A stretch of DNA of 64,000 nucleotides from Terracidiphilus sp. (GTDB taxonomy: Bacteria; Acidobacteriota; Terriglobia; Terriglobales; Acidobacteriaceae), in NCBI GenBank assembly GCA_035308825.1, contig DATGFX010000086.1:20283-84282 (forward strand), given 5' to 3'. A program made the position numbers and the translations under genes. The notes beneath the pieces are model-generated. The model made no database searches and was not told the DNA's origin. It saw nothing but the letters and a program-made list of their open reading frames with translations. Shown piece by piece: positions 18,480 through 39,494 of this stretch (positions are counted from its first letter, which is position 1; each line of letters opens with the position of its first letter).

Positions 18480-20593
18480 GGCTTCTTCCAGGGTAGTTCG
18501 GGCTGCAGGATGCCCAGTTGGGATGGATCGCCGAGCGGATGCGATAGGCCGCGTAGTGCATCGGGCGGGGCAGTTGGGTGACGCGGGAACTGGACTGGCT
18601 GGTCGCCGGCAGTCTCAACAGAATCGTCCGGTGGGGGATTGACGAAGAAATGGCCTCCATGCAGACGCGCGACTTGCTGGCCATGCTTTGCGCCCCCTGG
18701 ATCCGGCGACGACCAGATGGCTCCGACTTCGACGGGCTTGTTTTCGACTGGCTTTGATGGAGCGAGGTTGTGCGCGAGGCGGCGCTGCTTCTCGACATAG
18801 GCGGCGACGACCCGGGAGCCCAGACGCGCGGGATAAAAGCTTTTGTCGCCATGCATCCAGAGAACGGCGACGACCAGCTCCGGATTGCGGCGCGGCAAGA
18901 CGCCGATGAACCAGACGTTGGGATTTGTCTCGTGGCCCTTGCCGGACTTGTCGAGAGCCTGGTGGCTCATGACTTGCGCGGTGCCGGTCTTGCCGGCGAG
19001 ATCGATGCCTTCCAAATGCGCGGAGCCGGCGGTATGAAACTGCGCCGGCACAGTGACCTGGGCCATGCCGTCGGTGATGATCTCCCAGTTGGCCGGATCG
19101 ATGGGGATGTAGGCCGATCCTGTACCGGGGTAGGTGTCGAGAAGCGCCTGGCGGAAATATTCCGGCAACTCGTCGGGGAAAACGCTGTGCGGCCGGACCA
19201 TGTGGCCGCCGGATGCGATGCCGCCGATGATGCGTGCCAGCTGAATCGGAGTCGCTTCAACCGCGCCCTGTCCGATGGAAACGTCGAGAGTTTCGTCAGG
19301 ATACCAGCGGTGATGGAAGTTCTTGAGCAGCCACGGCACGGATGGCATGAGTCCGGACTGCTCTCCAGGCAGGTCGATTCCTGTCTTCTGCCCGTAGCCG
19401 AACTCGGTTGCGTACCTTGCAATGCGATCGATGCCGAGCTTGTCGCCGAGCTGGTAGAAGTACGTATCGCAGGAGTAGGGGATGGCGTTATTGATGTCGA
19501 CAGCGCCGTGCTTAAAGTCGCATTTATGGTAGTAACCGTACGGTCCCCAGCCGCCGTTGCAGACGACCTTGAGGTTTTGCGCGATGCCTTCCTGGAGGCC
19601 AGCGACGGACATGAGAATCTTGAAAGTTGAACCGGGCGCGAGCTGGGCCTGAATGGCCTTGTTGAGCAGCGGGTGCTGTGGGTCGGTGATCAGCTTGTTC
19701 CACTCGGCGCGATCAATTCTGACGGCGAAGGCATTGGGGTCGAAGCTGGGACGCGAAACCATGGCGAGGATCTCGCCGTTGCGCGGATCCATTGCCACAA
19801 TCGCGCCCTCGCGACTGCCGAGGGCAAGTTCCGCGGCGCGTTGCAAATCGTTGTCGATGGTGAGACGCAAGTCCATGCCCGGCTTGGCGTGCTGGATTCC
19901 CAGGAATCCGACCTCCCGTCCATGGCTGTCCACGATTTCGTCGCGCGCGCCGTCCTGCCCGCGCAGCAGCTGATCGTAAGTCTCCTCCACTCCGGCCTTG
20001 CCCACCACGTCGCCCGGTTCGTACGCGGCATATCGCGGGTCATTGAGCATGTCTTCGCTTACTTCGCCGACGTACCCGATCAGGTGGGCCGCGAAGCCGT
20101 CACGCGGATAGAGCCTGCGCGCTTCATCGATGGTTTCCAGTTCCGGCAATTCATTGCGGTGCGCTTCGATGAATGCCTGCTCATCCGCTGTAATGTCCTG
20201 CTTGATCGGGATCGGTTGGTAGCCCGGCGAACTGCGATAGTGCTGAATCGTGGCGTGCAATTGATTCAGATCAAGATGCAGCCCGGTCGCGATCAACGGC
20301 AGATCAGCGTCGATGTTGTGGTTCTGCTCGCGTACAAGGAAGCAGGAAACCGAGGGGTAATTGTCGACAATCAGGCGGTTCTCGCGGTCAAAGAGCTTGC
20401 CGCGCGCGGCCAGGATCGGAACCTTACGGATGCGGTTTTGCTCGGCGAGAACCTTGAAATTGCTGGCGCCCAGAACCTGCAGCCGCCAAAGCCCGGCAGC
20501 CAGCGCCAGCATCATCAGCAGAATGCCGTATTGAACGGCGGTCAGCTTGATGCTTGAGACCTTCTCGCCTCGTGAATACTTCTCTGAAACCAT
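18476..20593 (-). CDS. mrdA: Penicillin-binding protein 2
   Basis: N-terminal TM, RGKLFDRE dimerisation domain, PGSTFK (SxxK), SCD (SxN variant), KTGT. Confidence 0.97.
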   Translation of the reverse strand: MVSEKYSRGEKVSSIKLTAVQYGILLMMLALAAGLWRLQVLGASNFKVLAEQNRIRKVPILAARGKLFDRENRLIVDNYPSVSCFLVREQNHNIDADLPLIATGLHLDLNQLHATIQHYRSSPGYQPIPIKQDITADEQAFIEAHRNELPELETIDEARRLYPRDGFAAHLIGYVGEVSEDMLNDPRYAAYEPGDVVGKAGVEETYDQLLRGQDGARDEIVDSHGREVGFLGIQHAKPGMDLRLTIDNDLQRAAELALGSREGAIVAMDPRNGEILAMVSRPSFDPNAFAVRIDRAEWNKLITDPQHPLLNKAIQAQLAPGSTFKILMSVAGLQEGIAQNLKVVCNGGWGPYGYYHKCDFKHGAVDINNAIPYSCDTYFYQLGDKLGIDRIARYATEFGYGQKTGIDLPGEQSGLMPSVPWLLKNFHHRWYPDETLDVSIGQGAVEATPIQLARIIGGIASGGHMVRPHSVFPDELPEYFRQALLDTYPGTGSAYIPIDPANWEIITDGMAQVTVPAQFHTAGSAHLEGIDLAGKTGTAQVMSHQALDKSGKGHETNPNVWFIGVLPRRNPELVVAVLWMHGDKSFYPARLGSRVVAAYVEKQRRLAHNLAPSKPVENKPVEVGAIWSSPDPGGAKHGQQVARLHGGHFFVNPPPDDSVETAGDQPVQFPRHPTAPPDALRGLSHPLGDPSQLGILQPELPWKKP

Positions 20594-32004: not shown

Positions 32005-34245
32005 TTAAAAGTTCCGAACCATCCAAGCATTGTTATCGCCCGGAGTGGGCATCTCCAAAATCCCCTGCCGCCCATCGGGAGACTGAATGAAGAAAGTAAA
32101 ATAAGAATTCTTTTGCCCTTGAATGACCACTTTTTGCTTCCCTGCCTCACTGAGGGCGAGGATCACCGGGACGCCCGCCGGTGTGACGCTCCGAACAAAG
32201 ACTCTGGAGCCATCGGATGACCAATCGATGTTAAACACGGGCCAGTCGTTCAGAGTTACCTCGTGAGCGACGCCGGTATCCGGTGCGAGAAATCGAATTC
32301 GATGCATGTCGACGACGAGGGCCAGGCGCGATCCATCTGGAGACAGACTCCAGTGGGATAGGCCACTCGGAATTTTCGTGATCTCGCGGCCTCGACCGTG
32401 CACGAGATCGAACGAGACGAGAATGTGTTCGGATCCGACAAGTTTGCTGAAAATGCACATTTGGGATGGAGCCCGGGCACACTGGTAATTGGTGATCCCG
32501 TTGTCACGGAGAACTAGCCGGGGAGGCCCTCCCGCCAAGGGCTTGGACATCAAGGATGCAGGGATCGAGGGATCGCCTGGCTGTGATTCGACAAGATAGA
32601 GCAGGTGCAAACCATCCGCGCTTAAACGCGGGAAGCGCATACCACGCCCTTCAACGAGGACCTCGGGAGTGAGCTCCTCGATGTTCTGCTTGAAAAGTTT
32701 CCAGGTTCCACTCCGATCGGAAACGAAAAGGACGGCTTTGCTGTCAGCGGTCCATGCCGTCGCCACACTTTCGTTGATGTCCAGGGTCAGACGGCGAGGC
32801 GTCTTCCACCGGTGCTTGCCTGGATCGAGTTCGGTGATGAATACCTGACGAGTTGTATTTCCCCTCGATATCACAAGCTGTTTTCCATCCGAGGTGGCGC
32901 TCAACGCACCAATCCACCCCTGGCCCTCGGTAACTGGTTGGGGTGGGGCGATGGCCTTTCCCGTACGCTCGTCCATCGCGATGGACTGAATGCCCATATC
33001 TTCTCGTTCGCTCCTTCGATCAGGCAGATAGGAGAAGAGAATACGTCCATCCGCATCCCACCATAAGGCCGGTCGCAACCGGGAATCATCCTGCAGCACA
33101 ACCTGCAAGTTGCCACCATTCGCATCGCGGGTGAGGAGCGAGTTAGCAAACTGCGGGGGATCGGGTGTTTCGAGGTGGGACTCGACGTAGGCAAGATGTG
33201 TGCCATTTGGTGACCAGGCGGGGCGTTGGATCCAACCATCCCCCAGGCTTGCCTCGTCGGCCTTTCTCGCCGAGGCTACCCTTCGTGCGTTCGCACCGTC
33301 GGAGTCCATGACCCAGAGTTCGCTTCCGAACTTAGGCCCAGGCGAATAAGCGATCCGGGATCCGTCCGGGGACACTGCTCCCTGAGCCGCATCATCGATG
33401 AGCTTTTTGGGTTCGCTGCCCAGGAGGGAAAGCGTCCAAAGGCTGAGCGTTCCGGATACTCCTTCTCTCCGAGTCACGAGCAGATGAATATTGTCGGGGA
33501 ACCAGTCATCAGGCCAGGCATCGAAGTCTTTCGGCAGGCTCCATGCGCGGGTTTCGCTGCTCGCGATTTGGCGAAGGTAGAGACCCGAATTGTCATGAAA
33601 GGCGAGATACTTGCCATCGCGCGACACCACTGCAGCTTCAACAGGCGCCTCAGGTGGATTCGAGGTGATTCGCTCCTCGGTCGAGAGGTGTGCAAGGACA
33701 GGCCTGTGCGCATCGCGCGTGCTGGCGGCCTGACGGATCAAAAAGCCCGCTACGACGAATCCGACTGCCAAGATGCACAGTGCGGCGGAGGACAGGCCGG
33801 ACAGCCTTTTTCGCGCCGGGTCAAATTGTGGCTTGAGCTGCAGGTCTTCGTTGTGGCGATCGTTGCTCACAATCGCCGGTGGAAGATGGGTTTCTTCCGG
33901 CGTGAGCCCGCCTTCTTCTGTCGTGGTGACCTCGCACAGAAATCGATAGCCTACTGTGGGCACTGTCGCGATAAATCGAGGCTCCCGGCTGTCATCTCCA
34001 AGCAGCCGGCGCAATGTGGCGATGCTGCGCGTGAGGGAGTTGTCAGAAACGGCTGCATCGCGCCAAGCAGCCGTCATGATCTCGTCCTTGGTGACCAGGC
34101 GGCCCGGATTTCGGAGCAGGTATATCAGCACACGGAAGGCGGTCGGCTCAACACTGACGGTCCGGCCGTCGCGGGCAAAGGCAAATTCACTTTCCCGCAG
34201 GACGATGCCTTCGAATTTAAAGATGAACGATTTGTGTTCGGCCAC
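32005..34245 (-). CDS. Transmembrane regulator: OmpR/CadC-type winged helix, TM, PD40/TolB-like beta-propeller
   Basis: Start moved to GTG 34245 (MAEHKSFIFKF, GAGG at 7 nt); VLIYLLRNPGRLVTKDEI...NSLTRSIATLRRLLGD...FIATVPTVGYRF; one TM; repeated SPDG/WSPNG blades. Confidence 0.88.
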   Translation of the reverse strand: MAEHKSFIFKFEGIVLRESEFAFARDGRTVSVEPTAFRVLIYLLRNPGRLVTKDEIMTAAWRDAAVSDNSLTRSIATLRRLLGDDSREPRFIATVPTVGYRFLCEVTTTEEGGLTPEETHLPPAIVSNDRHNEDLQLKPQFDPARKRLSGLSSAALCILAVGFVVAGFLIRQAASTRDAHRPVLAHLSTEERITSNPPEAPVEAAVVSRDGKYLAFHDNSGLYLRQIASSETRAWSLPKDFDAWPDDWFPDNIHLLVTRREGVSGTLSLWTLSLLGSEPKKLIDDAAQGAVSPDGSRIAYSPGPKFGSELWVMDSDGANARRVASARKADEASLGDGWIQRPAWSPNGTHLAYVESHLETPDPPQFANSLLTRDANGGNLQVVLQDDSRLRPALWWDADGRILFSYLPDRRSEREDMGIQSIAMDERTGKAIAPPQPVTEGQGWIGALSATSDGKQLVISRGNTTRQVFITELDPGKHRWKTPRRLTLDINESVATAWTADSKAVLFVSDRSGTWKLFKQNIEELTPEVLVEGRGMRFPRLSADGLHLLYLVESQPGDPSIPASLMSKPLAGGPPRLVLRDNGITNYQCARAPSQMCIFSKLVGSEHILVSFDLVHGRGREITKIPSGLSHWSLSPDGSRLALVVDMHRIRFLAPDTGVAHEVTLNDWPVFNIDWSSDGSRVFVRSVTPAGVPVILALSEAGKQKVVIQGQKNSYFTFFIQSPDGRQGILEMPTPGDNNAWMVRNF

Positions 34246-34534
34246 AGGCAAGACCTCTGATGCGGGAGATCTTCCCATGCGAGTGGAGCAAATGAGGTGC
34301 CATCGAGATTCGTCACTAAGTTGTGGATACAGCTTATGAATGCTCGGGCAAATTCTTGAGTCAATGTCCGGTTTGAGGTCCAAACGTCCAGAAACGGACG
34401 TCGAGCAGCGACCATCTCGGGCAGGTATCTTTCGACACCTGGGGCAATTTTGAAGCGTGTGCCGGAGTATCGTCGGCGATTCAAGAAGCGTTCCAGTGAC
34501 ACGTTGGAAGCGCATGGCAACGCGAACCGCAAGC

Positions 34535-37500
34535 TCACGGCGTTATGTCTACGGTAAGACTTGTCGACGTAGCCGAGCCTGCCACCATGATGGTGACGGT
34601 CGAAACTCCAATGGGCGTTGTCGGGTTGCTTGTCGTCTTGCCCGAGCCTCCACCACCACATCCCCACAGCATGAGCGTGCAGGTGGCAAGGACAACTGCG
34701 ATCAGGTTCTTGCAGAGACCGCGGCGACGCCGAAAGGCCACCAGAAACACTGCCGCCAGGGCGAGGTAGCGGACTGGTTGCCCGCCGACCGAAAGCAAAG
34801 CCTGCGGCACAGCGACGTTGGTGGAAATGGTGACAGTGGTTTGCTGCGCAGCCTGGCTTGATGAGGTGAATACAAGCGACGCGGGCGAGAAGGCGCAGGC
34901 GGAGTTGGCCGGTAATCCGGAACACGCAAAGGTTATCGTTCCGTTATAAGCGCCTACCGGGGTCACAGTAATCGTTGCGGACCCGCTGCCTCCCTGAGCG
35001 ATGCTGATCGATGAGGGATTCGCGAATATTTGAAGTGTGGCTGCGGCCACGGTCAGGGAAATCGCGGTACTCGTCGATGGGGCATTCAGGGCATCCCCGC
35101 TATAGGATGCCGTAATGGAGTGAGAGCCTGCGCTCAGGTCACTGACGGACAAGGTAGCGACGCCCTCGGTCAGAGTGCCGGCGCCGAGAGCGGTGGTCCC
35201 ATCCTGAAATTTGACGGTTCCGGTCGCGGTGGCTGGAGAAACCGTCGCGGTGAGTGTGATGGGAGTGCCAACGGGCGCCGACAATGGTCCGGCGCTGAGA
35301 GACGTTGTCGTGGCTTGCAGCGTCGGAGCCGGATTGTTCTGATTCAGAAGAGAACTCAGCCCGGATGTTGAGCTGACGAGAAGGTCGAGATATTGTTTGC
35401 TCCCGGAAGCGATTTCATTATGGTTGATTTTGGTGAGGAAGAACCCTGTCGCATCGCTGGGTAGCTGAACATATCGATTCGAATCAGAGGTGAAGTTGCC
35501 TGACCCCTGATTGAGCAACAAGATCGGACTCCCATCGAGGACCGCAATATCGGGCAATCCATCCCCGTTTACGTCTCCAATTTGCACCGGGCCGCTTAGG
35601 TTCTGGGGGCTTGTATACACAGGCGCTGCAGAGAACGTTCCGTTGCCTGCCCCAGCGTAGACCTGGATATCGTTAGGCGTAGCGCAGACAAGATCGGGGA
35701 TGACGTCGCCCGTGACATCCGCGACGGCAATGCTGGAGGCATAGATAGAGAGGAACTGGGTCATGGCGGAAAACGTCCCGTTCCCGTTGCCAAGATAGGA
35801 AATTACCGTGCCGCTCCCGTCCGAGATCACAAGATCGAGTTTGCCATCGCCGTTGAGATCAGCGGCAACAACCGCGGTTGGATCGATTTCGAGTAATGCA
35901 ATGTCCGATGGCGTGCCAAACGTTCCATCGCCGTTCCCAGGAAGGAAGAACGCGCCACCCTCTCCTAGTCCGGCCTCCGTACCTGGAACCGAATAGGTGA
36001 AAACGAGGTCCTGTTTGCCATCACCGTTGAAATCGCCCGAAACGGCGCCCGTAATCGTGGCATGCGGAAGAGTGAAAGTATTGAGAAACGTGAGGGTGCC
36101 ATCCCCATTACCGCGATAGGAGAAGACCTGGGCAGTCCCCGGGCCGCAAATCTCCGCACAACCAGCGATCCCGGGGTCAATCGATACGACGTCTGTGTGA
36201 GAATCGCCATTAAAATCGGCCGCAACCACCAGATAACCGCTGTCTGTTGAGCCCCCGGTCGCCGTGGGAGCGGCCGTGAACCGGCCGTCCCCAGTGGAAA
36301 GATAAACTTGCGGGGCTCCAGCAAAGACCGCGTTCTTGATGATTGCATCGGGCAAGCCGTCGCCGTTCATATCTGCTGTCGCAGCGCCTGTATTCGACGC
36401 GACCGTAAAAGGGCCGGTGTTAAAGTTTCCTCCACCGGTTCCGGCAACAAAAGTGAATTCACTGTCGCCGACGCCGAAGTCTATCGCGACGATATCCGGA
36501 ATGCCATCTCCGTTGACGTCCGCGACCACAAAGCCGTTGTCGGGTGCATAGGCCCACCCGACCGGCGGATTAAACGAGCCGGAGTTGTTGAGACTCGAAA
36601 CTTCGAAGCCGTCAACGGCGCCGAGAGAGTTCACTGTGGACAGCAGGTCGGGAGTGCTGTTGCTTCCCAGCGGGATTGCATTCAGCGCCCCGACGTGGAA
36701 GCCGTCGCCGGAGATGGCAACGGGAGAGGATGTGAGGCCTGAAGAGCTGCCCTTGATCCAATACAGGGAACCTGTGGGATCATTTCCGGGCAAAATATCC
36801 TCTTGCACATAGGCGAGATCGGAGTAGCCATCGTTGTTGAAATCACCCAATGCGAAGTAACCAACCCCGCTGGGAAGAGGTTGCTCCGGCTGAAAGGTGC
36901 CGTTGCCATTGCCGAGTACGTACCCCGATCCGAAGACGAGATCCTGGATACCGTCGCCGTTGACGTCGGCCGCTGCAATGTCGTAGACCCCGGGGCTTTG
37001 CGTAACCGGCACAGCGAATTGGCCGTTGTTCTGGTTGAGCGAGATCGCATAACCGGATTCCACTGCAATCGCGAGGTCCGGGAGCCCGTCGCCATTGAAG
37101 TCAGCCAGAGTCATGGCAGTTACGAGAGAAGGATTGAGCGACATCGGAGAACGAACCGGCGCCTGAAATGTGCCGTCCCCGTTGCCAAGAAACGCTTCGA
37201 GGAATCCTTCATGGCAGAACACGACCAGATCGAGTTTCTTGTCCTGGTTCACGTCCGCAGCGGCCATCAACCGAGGGGTGCATTGAGTCAGCAGCGTCCC
37301 CACCTGTTGGGGAGCCCCACTCGACTGCCCGAAGACTACCACCAGGTAATCTGGTGGGACAGGGGTTTGGTTTGCGTTGTAGGGCTCCAAGATATAAGCA
37401 AAATCGAGCTTGTTGTCGCCATTGAAGTCGCCCGAGACTCCCGCGCCCGACAAACCAGCGCCGACCGGCATGTAAGAGCAGTTGGAACCACAACCAGCCG

Positions 37501-37609
37501 GCGGCTGGTACACCGGAAAGGTTTGTTCAACTTGAAAAACTCCCTGAGCGGCAGCAGTGAGTGTTGAAGACACCAAGAGCAAGAAAACAGCAAGCGTACG
37601 AGCAGGCAT
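34535..37609 (-). CDS. Secreted FG-GAP/VCBS repeat protein with bacterial Ig-like domains and C-terminal membrane/lipobox module
   Basis: ATG 37609 with GGAGG; signal peptide; 12 clear D(F/V/L/M)xxDG-type Ca-binding repeats; Big_3-like domain (TTTSLSA...TLTATVSP.TATGTVKFQDG...HSITASYSGD); TM-RRRR-hydrophobic-LWGC tail. Confidence 0.9.
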   Translation of the reverse strand: MPARTLAVFLLLVSSTLTAAAQGVFQVEQTFPVYQPPAGCGSNCSYMPVGAGLSGAGVSGDFNGDNKLDFAYILEPYNANQTPVPPDYLVVVFGQSSGAPQQVGTLLTQCTPRLMAAADVNQDKKLDLVVFCHEGFLEAFLGNGDGTFQAPVRSPMSLNPSLVTAMTLADFNGDGLPDLAIAVESGYAISLNQNNGQFAVPVTQSPGVYDIAAADVNGDGIQDLVFGSGYVLGNGNGTFQPEQPLPSGVGYFALGDFNNDGYSDLAYVQEDILPGNDPTGSLYWIKGSSSGLTSSPVAISGDGFHVGALNAIPLGSNSTPDLLSTVNSLGAVDGFEVSSLNNSGSFNPPVGWAYAPDNGFVVADVNGDGIPDIVAIDFGVGDSEFTFVAGTGGGNFNTGPFTVASNTGAATADMNGDGLPDAIIKNAVFAGAPQVYLSTGDGRFTAAPTATGGSTDSGYLVVAADFNGDSHTDVVSIDPGIAGCAEICGPGTAQVFSYRGNGDGTLTFLNTFTLPHATITGAVSGDFNGDGKQDLVFTYSVPGTEAGLGEGGAFFLPGNGDGTFGTPSDIALLEIDPTAVVAADLNGDGKLDLVISDGSGTVISYLGNGNGTFSAMTQFLSIYASSIAVADVTGDVIPDLVCATPNDIQVYAGAGNGTFSAAPVYTSPQNLSGPVQIGDVNGDGLPDIAVLDGSPILLLNQGSGNFTSDSNRYVQLPSDATGFFLTKINHNEIASGSKQYLDLLVSSTSGLSSLLNQNNPAPTLQATTTSLSAGPLSAPVGTPITLTATVSPATATGTVKFQDGTTALGAGTLTEGVATLSVSDLSAGSHSITASYSGDALNAPSTSTAISLTVAAATLQIFANPSSISIAQGGSGSATITVTPVGAYNGTITFACSGLPANSACAFSPASLVFTSSSQAAQQTTVTISTNVAVPQALLSVGGQPVRYLALAAVFLVAFRRRRGLCKNLIAVVLATCTLMLWGCGGGGSGKTTSNPTTPIGVSTVTIMVAGSATSTSLTVDITP

Positions 37610-38131
37610 CGACTTACCTCCAAAGATTGGGAGCAGCATGGTGTTGGGTCGATCTGATGCTTGAAATACTGCTGTTCGATCGTGGTGTAAGGGCAGCAAT
37701 TACCAAGACAGCTGCCCTAAGCAAACGTTCCATTCGCGCCGCGCCGGAATTGGCGAGGTCCCATAAAGAAGGTTGAATTCGTTGCGCAGATGCTGAGGCT
37801 TCGGCTTACTGTCAGTTAGCCTGCTTTACGCTCTGCCGGTAAGTCTCAAACCCATGCGCCGTTTCTATCTTTCGGGCCGTTCTATTTCTTGGAGCGGGCG
37901 CTCTTGCGGGCGACGATCACTGAAACTTCGCCACCCTCTCAGGTCTGGCAGAGAGTGTGCCACCATCTCCTTGAACCGATCAAGCGCAATCAAACGGGAT
38001 GGCATCCACCGGCGAATCGGAACTGTGATGAATTTTCGACAGGCTTTACCGAAGGAATGCCAGAGGTTCGCTGGCTTTTCGCGCGCGGACAGAAGACCAG
38101 CGGGTGTGACCGAATCGGCTCGGTCGACTCG

Positions 38132-38210: not shown

Positions 38211-39494
38211 TCACCACATCGTCAGATTGACCTTATCGACCCATTCGTGAAGCGGGGTACCGCTCGTGTCCTGGTCCAGTTGGAATTGGAGGCCGATCTG
38301 ATCTGGCCAAGTGGTACTGTTGACGTTCCAGGTCTGATTGAGGCCGTAAGGTGTCCCATCGAAGACCAGGGTATCGTAGCGATACTGCGTGGCATTATTG
38401 ATGAGCTCATCGTACTCCTGGACGTGATGCCAGCCCGGCGTCCAGTGGGGACAGGCGATCCCATTGAGTACCCATCGAGCGCCGTCGCTATCCCAGGTGG
38501 CCCAGTAGCCGTCTCCGAAGTCGCACTGGCTGCCGATCATAAATTCTTTGCCTGACAGAACCACGTAGAAATCGAGTTCCGAAGACCAGAAGTGGGCTTC
38601 AGCGGCTGGGTCGTGGTAGACCCAGAAGTCCCACAAAAAATGGGTATTGGAAGTCGTGCCCGCCATGATGTCCTTGAACAGAACGTTGCTCCATTGCGGC
38701 CCGCCGGCGTACATCTCAAGGCTGCTGCCGCTCAGCGAGGGCTCGCTCTGGTCAAATGTCATCGTGTAGTTGTTGGTGATGTTGGTCCCCGCCGCGCACT
38801 GGCTGCAGATGCTCCAGTTGGCGGCAACGTTCTGCATCTCCGTTTGCACGGTTGCGTTTGCAGGTGGGGTGGGCAGCGAAGTGGTGCTGGTGGGTGGCGT
38901 TCCGACCTGAATCAGCCTGATTTCAGATCTGTCGGAATCGGCCTTGGAGTCTGTAACGCTCGCCCAGAGAAGATGCTGACCAGAGGGAATGGTTATCGCC
39001 TGGGAGATGGAAGTTGCCGGGTTATTCGCCTGATAGACGGCTTGACCGTCGAGGCAAACCGTCCACTGAGTAATGGCGGCGGAGGCGTATGCGGTTGCAT
39101 TCACCGTGACGTTGCCTGGATTCTCACCGGGTGCGGGTGTTTGCAACCAGATGCCGCTTATCGAGCCATTTTGGTTGTTATATCCCGATTCCGCTCCGCC
39201 ACATCCCTGACTGGCGTTGCTCGGTGATCCGCCAATGACTGTCCCACCGCCGCTGCCGGACCCGCCGCCGGAGCCTGATCCGCCACTTCCTGATCCGCCA
39301 CCGGAGCCTGATCCGCCACCGGAGCCTGCACTGGCAGTCTTTGATGGTGAACCGCCGCACCCGACGATGAGCAGGAACTGGAGCGCCAAGGCGAAGGAGC
39401 AAAGAAGGGAAAGAGAAAGCCGAAGCAATGCGGTACCACTCCCGTGCAATATGGATGCGGCCTGGCGCGCTTGTTCTGTCTGATGGAACAGCAA
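38211..39494 (-). CDS. Lipoprotein with Gly/Ser linker, Ig-like domain and Trp-rich jelly-roll-like C-terminal domain
   Basis: Lipobox LIVGC followed by GG; (GSGGGS)n linker; beta-rich Trp/Asp-rich C-terminus (FLWDFWVY, YDTLVFDG, QFQLDQ). Start codon uncertain. Confidence 0.8.
   Translation of the reverse strand: MLFHQTEQARQAASILHGSGTALLRLSLSLLCSFALALQFLLIVGCGGSPSKTASAGSGGGSGSGGGSGSGGSGSGGGSGSGGGTVIGGSPSNASQGCGGAESGYNNQNGSISGIWLQTPAPGENPGNVTVNATAYASAAITQWTVCLDGQAVYQANNPATSISQAITIPSGQHLLWASVTDSKADSDRSEIRLIQVGTPPTSTTSLPTPPANATVQTEMQNVAANWSICSQCAAGTNITNNYTMTFDQSEPSLSGSSLEMYAGGPQWSNVLFKDIMAGTTSNTHFLWDFWVYHDPAAEAHFWSSELDFYVVLSGKEFMIGSQCDFGDGYWATWDSDGARWVLNGIACPHWTPGWHHVQEYDELINNATQYRYDTLVFDGTPYGLNQTWNVNSTTWPDQIGLQFQLDQDTSGTPLHEWVDKVNLTMW

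Follow-up and report, generated by a model that had tools for sequence, protein, structure and literature searches.

The split immunoglobulin-like C-terminal tail of an FG-GAP repeat protein from Terracidiphilus is a divergent member of the putative 'lipo-invert' anchoring family NF058595

The stretch of DNA analysed here, referred to below as the window, comprises 64,000 nucleotides from Terracidiphilus sp. (positions 20,283 to 84,282 of contig DATGFX010000086.1, GenBank assembly GCA_035308825.1). On its minus strand it carries a gene for a large, apparently exported FG-GAP/VCBS-repeat protein that ends in an immunoglobulin (Ig)-like domain combined with a hydrophobic helix, an arginine-rich loop, a second hydrophobic helix closed by a lipobox cysteine, and a short tail of beta strands. 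This C-terminal tail was found to match an existing NCBIfam family, NF058595, and as judged from its sequence it is a rather divergent new member of the catalogued 'lipo-invert' family and not a new system. It probably tethers the protein to lipid by its C-terminal end.

The open reading frame (ORF) spans bases 34535–37699 of the window and encodes 1054 amino acids when read from an in-frame upstream TTG at 37699. The database gene model for the same protein (P0003), which was independently assembled in a public run, is 1024 amino acids long and starts at M31 of the longer frame, giving the N-terminus MPARTLAVFLLLVSSTLTAAAQG. A Pfam search of the full protein detected FG-GAP_3 (2.6e-71), FG-GAP (3.6e-41) and Big_3_5 (4.6e-23), arranged as 12 FG-GAP_3 stretches and one Big_3_5 domain, and no Pfam match was found in the last 165 residues. 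The tail reads, in order, TTVTISTNVAVPQALLSVGGQPVR-YLALAAVFLVAF-RRRRGLCK-NLIAVVLATCTLMLWG-C-GGGGSGKTTSNPTT-PIGVSTVTIMVAGSATSTSLTVDITP-stop. The codon for the lipobox cysteine lies at 34658–34660 (ACA on the plus strand, TGT on the coding strand), and this cysteine is residue 984 of 1024, with 41 residues from it to the C-terminus. An earlier note on this DNA, made from the sequence alone, had described these elements, and translation of the ORF placed every one of them, including the cysteine codon, where the note had put it. The coordinates of the parts are listed in Table 1.

Table 1. Parts of the FG-GAP protein gene and its tail, with one unrelated ORF that shares the lipobox octamer. Positions are those of the window unless another contig is named; residue numbers given for AlphaFold2 are those of the last 165 amino acids.
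Feature	Position	Strand	Basis
Whole gene, exported FG-GAP/VCBS-repeat protein with Big_3_5 and lipo-invert tail	34535..37609	-	ORF list, translation, P0003 model, Pfam
Probable N-terminal Sec signal peptide MPARTLAVFLLLVSSTLTAAA, then QG	37547..37609	-	translation read directly
Complete Big_3_5 Ig-like domain, N-terminal to the split domain	35045..35296	-	Pfam PF16640, residues 802–885 of the 1054-residue frame
Split Ig-like domain, N-terminal part (QIFANPSS...TTVTIST), carrying the C37/C46 pair	34820..35032	-	positions 3–70 of 97 in the model of the uninterrupted domain, 60.6 bits; pLDDT 91–96
Variable linker NVAVPQALLSVGGQP, from the Ig part to helix 1	34775..34819	-	no conserved alignment columns; pLDDT <50 at residues 79–83
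Helix 1 (VR-YLALAAVFLVAF), putative stop-transfer	34733..34774	-	AlphaFold2 helix, residues 87–102
Basic loop RRRRGLCK, predicted cytoplasmic, net charge +5, putative n-region of the internal signal	34709..34732	-	sequence
Helix 2, h-region and lipobox, NLIAVVLATCTLMLWG-C	34658..34708	-	sequence; invariant Cys
Gly/Ser/Thr-rich tether GGGGSGKTTSNPTT, directly after the Cys	34616..34657	-	low pLDDT in the AlphaFold2 model
Split Ig-like domain, last two beta strands (PIGVSTVTIMVAGSATSTSLTVDITP)	34538..34615	-	AlphaFold2 strands 142–151 and 156–164; pLDDT 87–92
Stop codon	34535–34537	-	sequence
NCBIfam NF058595 'invert_tail' match extent	34541..34843	-	hmmscan and genome search
Unrelated cyanobacterial ORF (L016), 203 amino acids, starting MRIKAIILLSCTLMLWGCGSPQ	1462–2073 of metagenome-assembled genome contig CAWCAG010000005.1	+	shares CTLMLWGC

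The family is represented in NCBIfam release 20.0 (June 2026) by a model of 113 positions (NF058595.1, 'invert_tail', lipo-invert putative C-terminal anchoring domain-containing protein) with a curated cut-off of 37 bits. Positions 2–111 of this model aligned to residues 953–1053 of the 1054-residue frame, and the match stopped one residue short of the stop codon. The cut-off was exceeded both with the tail alone (39.4 bits, hmmscan) and in a search of the whole genome (42.3 bits), whereas the whole 1054-residue frame scored 36.3 bits in hmmscan, just below the cut-off, which makes the protein a marginal member and counts against the assignment. Taken together, the scores indicate that this copy is a genuine but low-scoring member of NF058595. 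It has the placement typical of the family, at the extreme C-terminus of a protein with an N-terminal signal-like segment, and also the family layout of helix, basic cluster, helix with lipobox cysteine and short beta tail. When compared from end to end, the two share the same architecture, the same taxonomic home (Terriglobia, Acidobacteriaceae-like) and the same multi-copy pattern. There is no difference in kind, and the peculiarities of this copy are a short helix 1, a tryptophan at the -2 position of the lipobox and a terminal hairpin that is both shortened and divergent. NF058595 is a curated but unpublished family, and the anchoring role that its name assigns from sequence is itself 'putative'. 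The earlier note had known of no named sorting system for the tail and had offered it as a candidate new surface-anchoring mechanism. Both statements have to be withdrawn because NF058595 already names the tail.

The host genome (5.32 Mb, 93 % complete) is Terracidiphilus-like, its alanine dehydrogenase sharing 88–91 % identity with proteins from Terracidiphilus sp. MAGs. It was found to contain four further genes with the tail, all scoring above the NF058595 cut-off, so that it has five copies. The passengers that carry them are unrelated. Beside the FG-GAP protein they are a small Big_3_5 protein of 315 amino acids, a pro-kumamolisin (sedolisin-type) protease of 963 amino acids, a protein of 1306 amino acids in which Pfam detected BNR/Sortilin and ASH-type Ig domains, and one of 1693 amino acids whose repeats resemble, on inspection of the sequences, those of the 1306-residue protein, Pfam having been run on the latter only. 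Across the family as a whole, the passengers include proteases, glycosidase-like domains and adhesin-like repeats, and range from 300 to more than 4000 amino acids.

A search for homologues using the last 165 residues (890–1054) retrieved 119 additional proteins that come from metagenomes and metagenome-assembled genomes (MAGs) of Terriglobia. The helix-basic-helix module was present in 106 of them, each with the cysteine, and in the remaining 13 the Ig domain was uninterrupted or the end was dissimilar. In the lipoboxes of the 106 tails, position -3 is L, V or I, position -2 is S, V, L, A or T and position -1 is G, A or S, and the cysteine is then mostly followed by GGG. In an alignment of 36 tails the only invariant columns were C37, C46, P50 and the lipobox cysteine C125, numbered from the start of the 165-residue segment. 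Sizes were compared over 109 tails. The basic loop has a median of 7 amino acids and a net charge of +4 (RRRRGLCK, net +5, in this copy), the h-region a median of 17 residues (16 here), and the part after the cysteine a median of 42 amino acids with a range of 29–60 (40 here).

A profile of the tail only (96 amino acids), searched against 1.84 billion cluster representatives, gave 16,893 matches at E<=1e-3 and 3,211 at E<=1e-10, totals that are inflated because proteins with multiple Ig domains match the strand part alone. Among the 134 best single-stretch matches, 132 had a C-terminal tail with the cysteine. The counting of tail copies and the check on cysteine conservation, which the earlier note had proposed as tests of its reading, thus came out in its favour. 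In 401 sampled genomes of the phylum, NF058595 was present in all 33 of the window's own family and also in two other families within the class, whereas its occurrence elsewhere in the phylum was only sporadic; up to at least 11 candidates were found per genome. True tails were verified in three outliers outside the window's own family, one of which belongs to a distant family within the phylum. On these matches, the lipo-invert tail is a hallmark of Acidobacteriaceae-type Terriglobia.

One metagenomic protein (P0131, 2823 amino acids) differs in having a complete lipo-invert tail at an internal position, at residues ~1660–1860. Directly after this tail there is a second helix-RKRRR-helix-lipobox (SGCGGSSS), followed by more Ig-type passenger. 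Its sequence may have arisen by read-through from one gene into a second, or it may be a polyprotein from which cleavage by LspA would yield two lipid-anchored pieces.

To examine the Ig-like domain, a hidden Markov model (HMM) of 97 positions was built from 104 uninterrupted copies of this domain type drawn from the host genome and the homologues. The consensus of these copies ends TLTLTASSTAATGTYTLTITGTSGSLTHTTTVSLTVT (fuller stretch SFSPASITGSGTSTLTLTASSTAATGTYTLTITGTSGSLTHTTTVSLTVT) and runs through without an insertion, just as the earlier note had said of ordinary copies. In 33 of the 36 aligned tails the part ahead of helix 1 mapped to HMM positions 1 to ~72, and the part after the cysteine, aligned independently, mapped to positions ~65–97 with independent E-values from 2e-2 to 3e-9. 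The membrane module therefore occupies the loop ahead of the last two strands, and without them the domain is incomplete. The proposal that the module interrupts the last Ig-like domain is borne out by this mapping, and the outcome that would have spoken against it, an Ig domain complete without the tail strands, was not observed, as the N-terminal part ends at about position 72 of 97. In the protein studied here, the N-terminal part lies on HMM positions 3–70 and the last two strands are found 65 residues further on. Its post-cysteine tail alone aligned ambiguously to the HMM. When the post-cysteine strands were spliced onto the N-terminal part, the first construct brought no gain in score (60.4 vs 60.7 bits), with shuffled controls at 58.3 +/- 2.2. 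This tail is too divergent for proof at the sequence level, and the case for a split domain thus relies on the family-wide mapping and on structure prediction.

An AlphaFold2 model of the last 165 residues, made with the 36-sequence alignment, had a mean predicted local distance difference test (pLDDT) score of 81. The seven N-terminal strands were modelled at 91–96 and the two terminal strands at 87–92, which agrees with the expectation in the earlier note that these strands belong to the domain. A Foldseek search of the PDB with this model retrieved single Ig/ASH/PapD-like domains of 98–112 residues, for example 9c72 (TM-score 0.63 on target) and 2e6j. These were aligned over 166–173 columns, and the alignment takes in the whole length of the model, insertion included. 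A further feature distinguishes the split domains. A pair of cysteines in the motif CSGLP....C.F (HMM columns 38 and 47) is present in 35–36 of the 36 split domains vs 6–11 of the 104 uninterrupted ones. In this copy the pair is C37 and C46 (A-C-SGLP....C-x-F, window 34895–34924). The two cysteines probably form a disulfide, and this bond may help to hold together a domain that is later to be cut. Because the pair is specific to the split subtype, it argues for an extracytoplasmic, stabilised domain.

The second half of the membrane module was compared with type II lipoprotein signals. Such signals have a positively charged n-region, an h-region of 7–22 residues and the lipobox [LVI][ASTVI][GAS]C. 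This pattern is matched by RRRRGLCK as n-region, by the h-region of 16 residues and by positions -3 and -1 of the lipobox L-W-G-C, but not by the tryptophan at -2. As in those signals, the family's tails have a basic n-region, an uncharged h-region of 15–20 residues, the lipobox [LVI]-x-[GAS]-C, a Gly/Ser tether and a predicted N-in/C-out orientation. GGG at +1 to +3 after the cysteine was found in ~80 % of tails vs ~5 % of N-terminal lipoproteins, the latter figure coming from a regular-expression scan whose 153 matches include many false positives. The tail departs from a type II signal in its position, which is not N-terminal but ~40 residues from the C-terminus, after a stop-transfer helix. 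A cut at this site would also separate the lipidated peptide from most of the protein, and not from a disposable signal peptide.

The enzymes that act on type II signals are encoded in the host genome. One match to LspA was found, together with three to the LGT family, of which one is a canonical Lgt, a match to Lnt (269 bits), and LolA. The internal type II signal that the earlier note had proposed for the RRRR-hydrophobic-LWGC segment is supported by this set of enzymes and by the basic loop, the h-region and the lipobox, which look like such a signal in N-in/C-out orientation. The eight residues CTLMLWGC of the tail recur identically in an unrelated ORF from a cyanobacterium, as part of its N-terminal lipoprotein signal. 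This ORF was the sole match of a single-protein scan of genome contigs and was rejected as a homologue; it serves as an illustration only. The gene upstream of the FG-GAP gene (38211–39494, minus strand, 427 amino acids) has a conventional lipoprotein signal at its N-terminus, FLLIVG-C-GGSPSKTAS, after which comes a long (GGGS)n tether. It offers an example, within the window itself, of the normal lipoproteins of this organism with which the internal signal can be compared. Given the encoded Lgt, LspA, Lnt and LolA, the recurrence of CTLMLWGC and the lipoprotein signal of this neighbour, lipidation of the internal signal and its cleavage by LspA would be the default expectation.

The two other LGT-family matches were also examined. 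One (L013, G000:C82:318919-319668) is a 280-residue paralogue located beside an rluD-like gene. The other (L014, G000:C88:39758-40183) is the LGT-like C-terminal portion of a long membrane ORF that has PAP2-like segments and is seemingly frameshifted or fused. Neither gene neighbourhood gave a link to the tails, and both were dropped as candidates for a dedicated tail enzyme.

We favour, with moderate confidence, the reading that this tail is a putative C-terminal anchoring domain of the lipo-invert type that works in the following way. The N-terminal Sec signal would direct the export of the FG-GAP passenger together with the larger part of the last Ig-like domain. Helix 1 would then stop transfer, in N-out/C-in orientation, while the RRRR loop would stay in the cytoplasm, and helix 2 would re-cross the membrane N-in/C-out and show a normal lipoprotein signal to Lgt and LspA in the usual topology. 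A stop-transfer function of helix 1, combined with the positive-inside rule for the arginine-rich loop, implies this orientation for helix 2 and places the lipobox at the outer face. N-in/C-out is the orientation of every signal peptide, and a lipobox at the outer face is the usual geometry of an Lgt/LspA substrate. The chain would thereby be 'inverted', making a lipoprotein signal usable at the C-terminal end, and this topology probably explains the curators' choice of the word 'invert'. The 40 residues after the cysteine would be exported and, as the models support, both strands would complete the Ig sandwich. Lgt would diacylglycerylate the cysteine, LspA would cut before it, and the lipidated 41-residue peptide would stay non-covalently in the last domain of the passenger, which would thus gain a C-terminal lipid anchor. 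A further step would remove or extract the remnant of helix 1, loop and helix 2 from the passenger. For the final state we can make only a tentative suggestion from the sequence: the LspA cut may leave a tri- or diacylated 41-residue peptide locked in the Ig-like domain, the remnant may be removed, and Lol may take the complex to the outer membrane or the cell surface.

A parallel for the proposed completion of the fold is the donor-strand complementation of chaperone-usher pilins (and of engineered split domains), where an Ig-like fold that lacks its C-terminal strand or strands is completed by a strand of a separate polypeptide in a very stable, non-covalent link. The lipo-invert tail would differ in that both pieces come from one precursor and presumably fold before the putative cut, in that two strands are supplied and not one, and in that the purpose would be lipid tethering and not polymerisation. 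To our knowledge, the formation of a lipoprotein by strand complementation through the housekeeping lipoprotein enzymes alone has so far been proven for no protein.

Several observations weigh against this reading, in addition to the sub-threshold score of the whole frame. Helix 1 has just 12 uncharged residues, the shortest of the 109 tails compared (median 18), and the two helices (residues 87–102 and 107–124 of the AlphaFold2 model) were predicted with pLDDT values of only 55–81. A cleaner splice of the terminal strands onto the N-terminal part gained ~4 bits at most, so these strands are weak at the sequence level, and their pairing with the rest of the domain is inferred from pLDDT and the span of the Foldseek alignment, not from listed contacts. 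In the lipobox, the tryptophan at -2 is atypical and falls outside the classical PROSITE lipobox pattern. After the LspA cut the passenger would still be held in the membrane by helix 1, RRRR and helix 2, and the lipid would be of consequence only after another step had dealt with this hairpin. Finally, no paper using 'lipo-invert' or 'internal lipobox' was found in the literature library searched.

The most probable alternative is a plain two-helix hairpin that anchors the protein in the inner membrane facing the periplasm, with the cysteine either unmodified or lipidated but uncut, as a reinforcement. Two hydrophobic helices around a strongly basic loop are a classical positive-inside hairpin; the passenger would keep this hairpin even after an LspA cut, and no release protease was identified. 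We nevertheless regard this explanation as unlikely. A hairpin of this kind does not need an invariant cysteine with a small residue at -1 and L, V or I at -3, and it provides no reason for a split Ig fold. Helix 1 is also short when set against the family median, and the passengers (proteases, glycosidase-like and adhesin-like repeat proteins) are typical of surface or extracellular proteins.

A second possibility is that helix 1 and RRRR form a tripartite sorting signal of the PEP-CTERM, MYXO-CTERM, GlyGly-CTERM or LPXTG kind, and that a sortase-like or intramembrane protease acts with Lgt and LspA to excise the hairpin, which would solve the release problem. A transmembrane helix followed by an arginine cluster is a common design in these signals. 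The lipo-invert tail shares with the tripartite systems (MYXO-CTERM, PEP-CTERM/exosortase, GlyGly-CTERM/rhombosortase, PGF-CTERM/archaeosortase and LPXTG/sortase) the presumed goal of attaching Sec-exported proteins by their C-terminus to lipid or to the cell surface, as well as dozens of copies per genome and restriction to lineages. The MYXO-CTERM/myxosortase (MrtX) system of Myxococcota combines an invariant cysteine, predicted lipidation, with Lgt as a candidate, and cleavage by a CPBP protease; its cysteine lies ahead of a single helix, which is an 'inverted topology' when compared with lipoprotein signals, and myxosortase is needed (Guo, Haft & Wall 2025, PMC11980579).

When the 36 aligned tails were examined for the signature motif that tripartite signals have directly before the transmembrane helix, no conserved columns were found there. 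Tripartite signals have one helix, a motif or cysteine ahead of it and a dedicated enzyme, and they end at the arginine cluster, whereas the lipo-invert tail has a second helix. The segment in question is not at the extreme C-terminus of the protein, as the 65 residues after the first arginine of RRRR include the remaining basic loop, the second helix, the cysteine and the two strands. Exosortase (PF09721) was not found in the 93 %-complete host genome, where CPBP/myxosortase-like proteins, rhombosortase, rhomboid, sortase and S2P were not searched for, and no co-occurring enzyme was identified, CPBP and rhomboid candidates being untested. The lack of both a motif ahead of helix 1 and an exosortase leaves a dedicated sortase unsupported, and we consider this explanation improbable. 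Since the second helix of the lipo-invert tail restores the normal topology, the housekeeping enzymes Lgt and LspA could suffice.

An assembly or annotation artefact that fused the end of one gene (an anchor plus RRRR) to the start of a lipoprotein gene is effectively refuted by the conservation of the architecture: the junction alone does resemble a protein end followed by a lipoprotein signal, and P0131 continues past its tail into a second hairpin-lipobox and passenger, but here the tail is in frame without a stop, the identical architecture is found in five host genes and thousands of cluster representatives, the part after the cysteine always consists of the two missing strands followed by the stop codon, and the same protein was assembled independently in the public run.

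If the favoured reading is correct, the Acidobacteriaceae, which are abundant soil bacteria, would use a split Ig domain together with an internal lipoprotein signal to fasten many of their large surface enzymes and adhesin-like proteins to lipid. Proteins could then be lipid-anchored at the C-terminus without a dedicated sortase; the mechanism would widen the range of substrate shapes handled by Lgt and LspA and would offer a compact anchoring tag for engineering. As the tail is already catalogued, the value of the present example is mainly confirmatory.

Downstream of the FG-GAP gene, the ORF at 32005–34515 (minus strand; public gene model of 746 amino acids) encodes a protein with a Trans_reg_C domain (CadC/OmpR-type winged helix), one membrane segment and PD40/TolB-like beta-propeller repeats.

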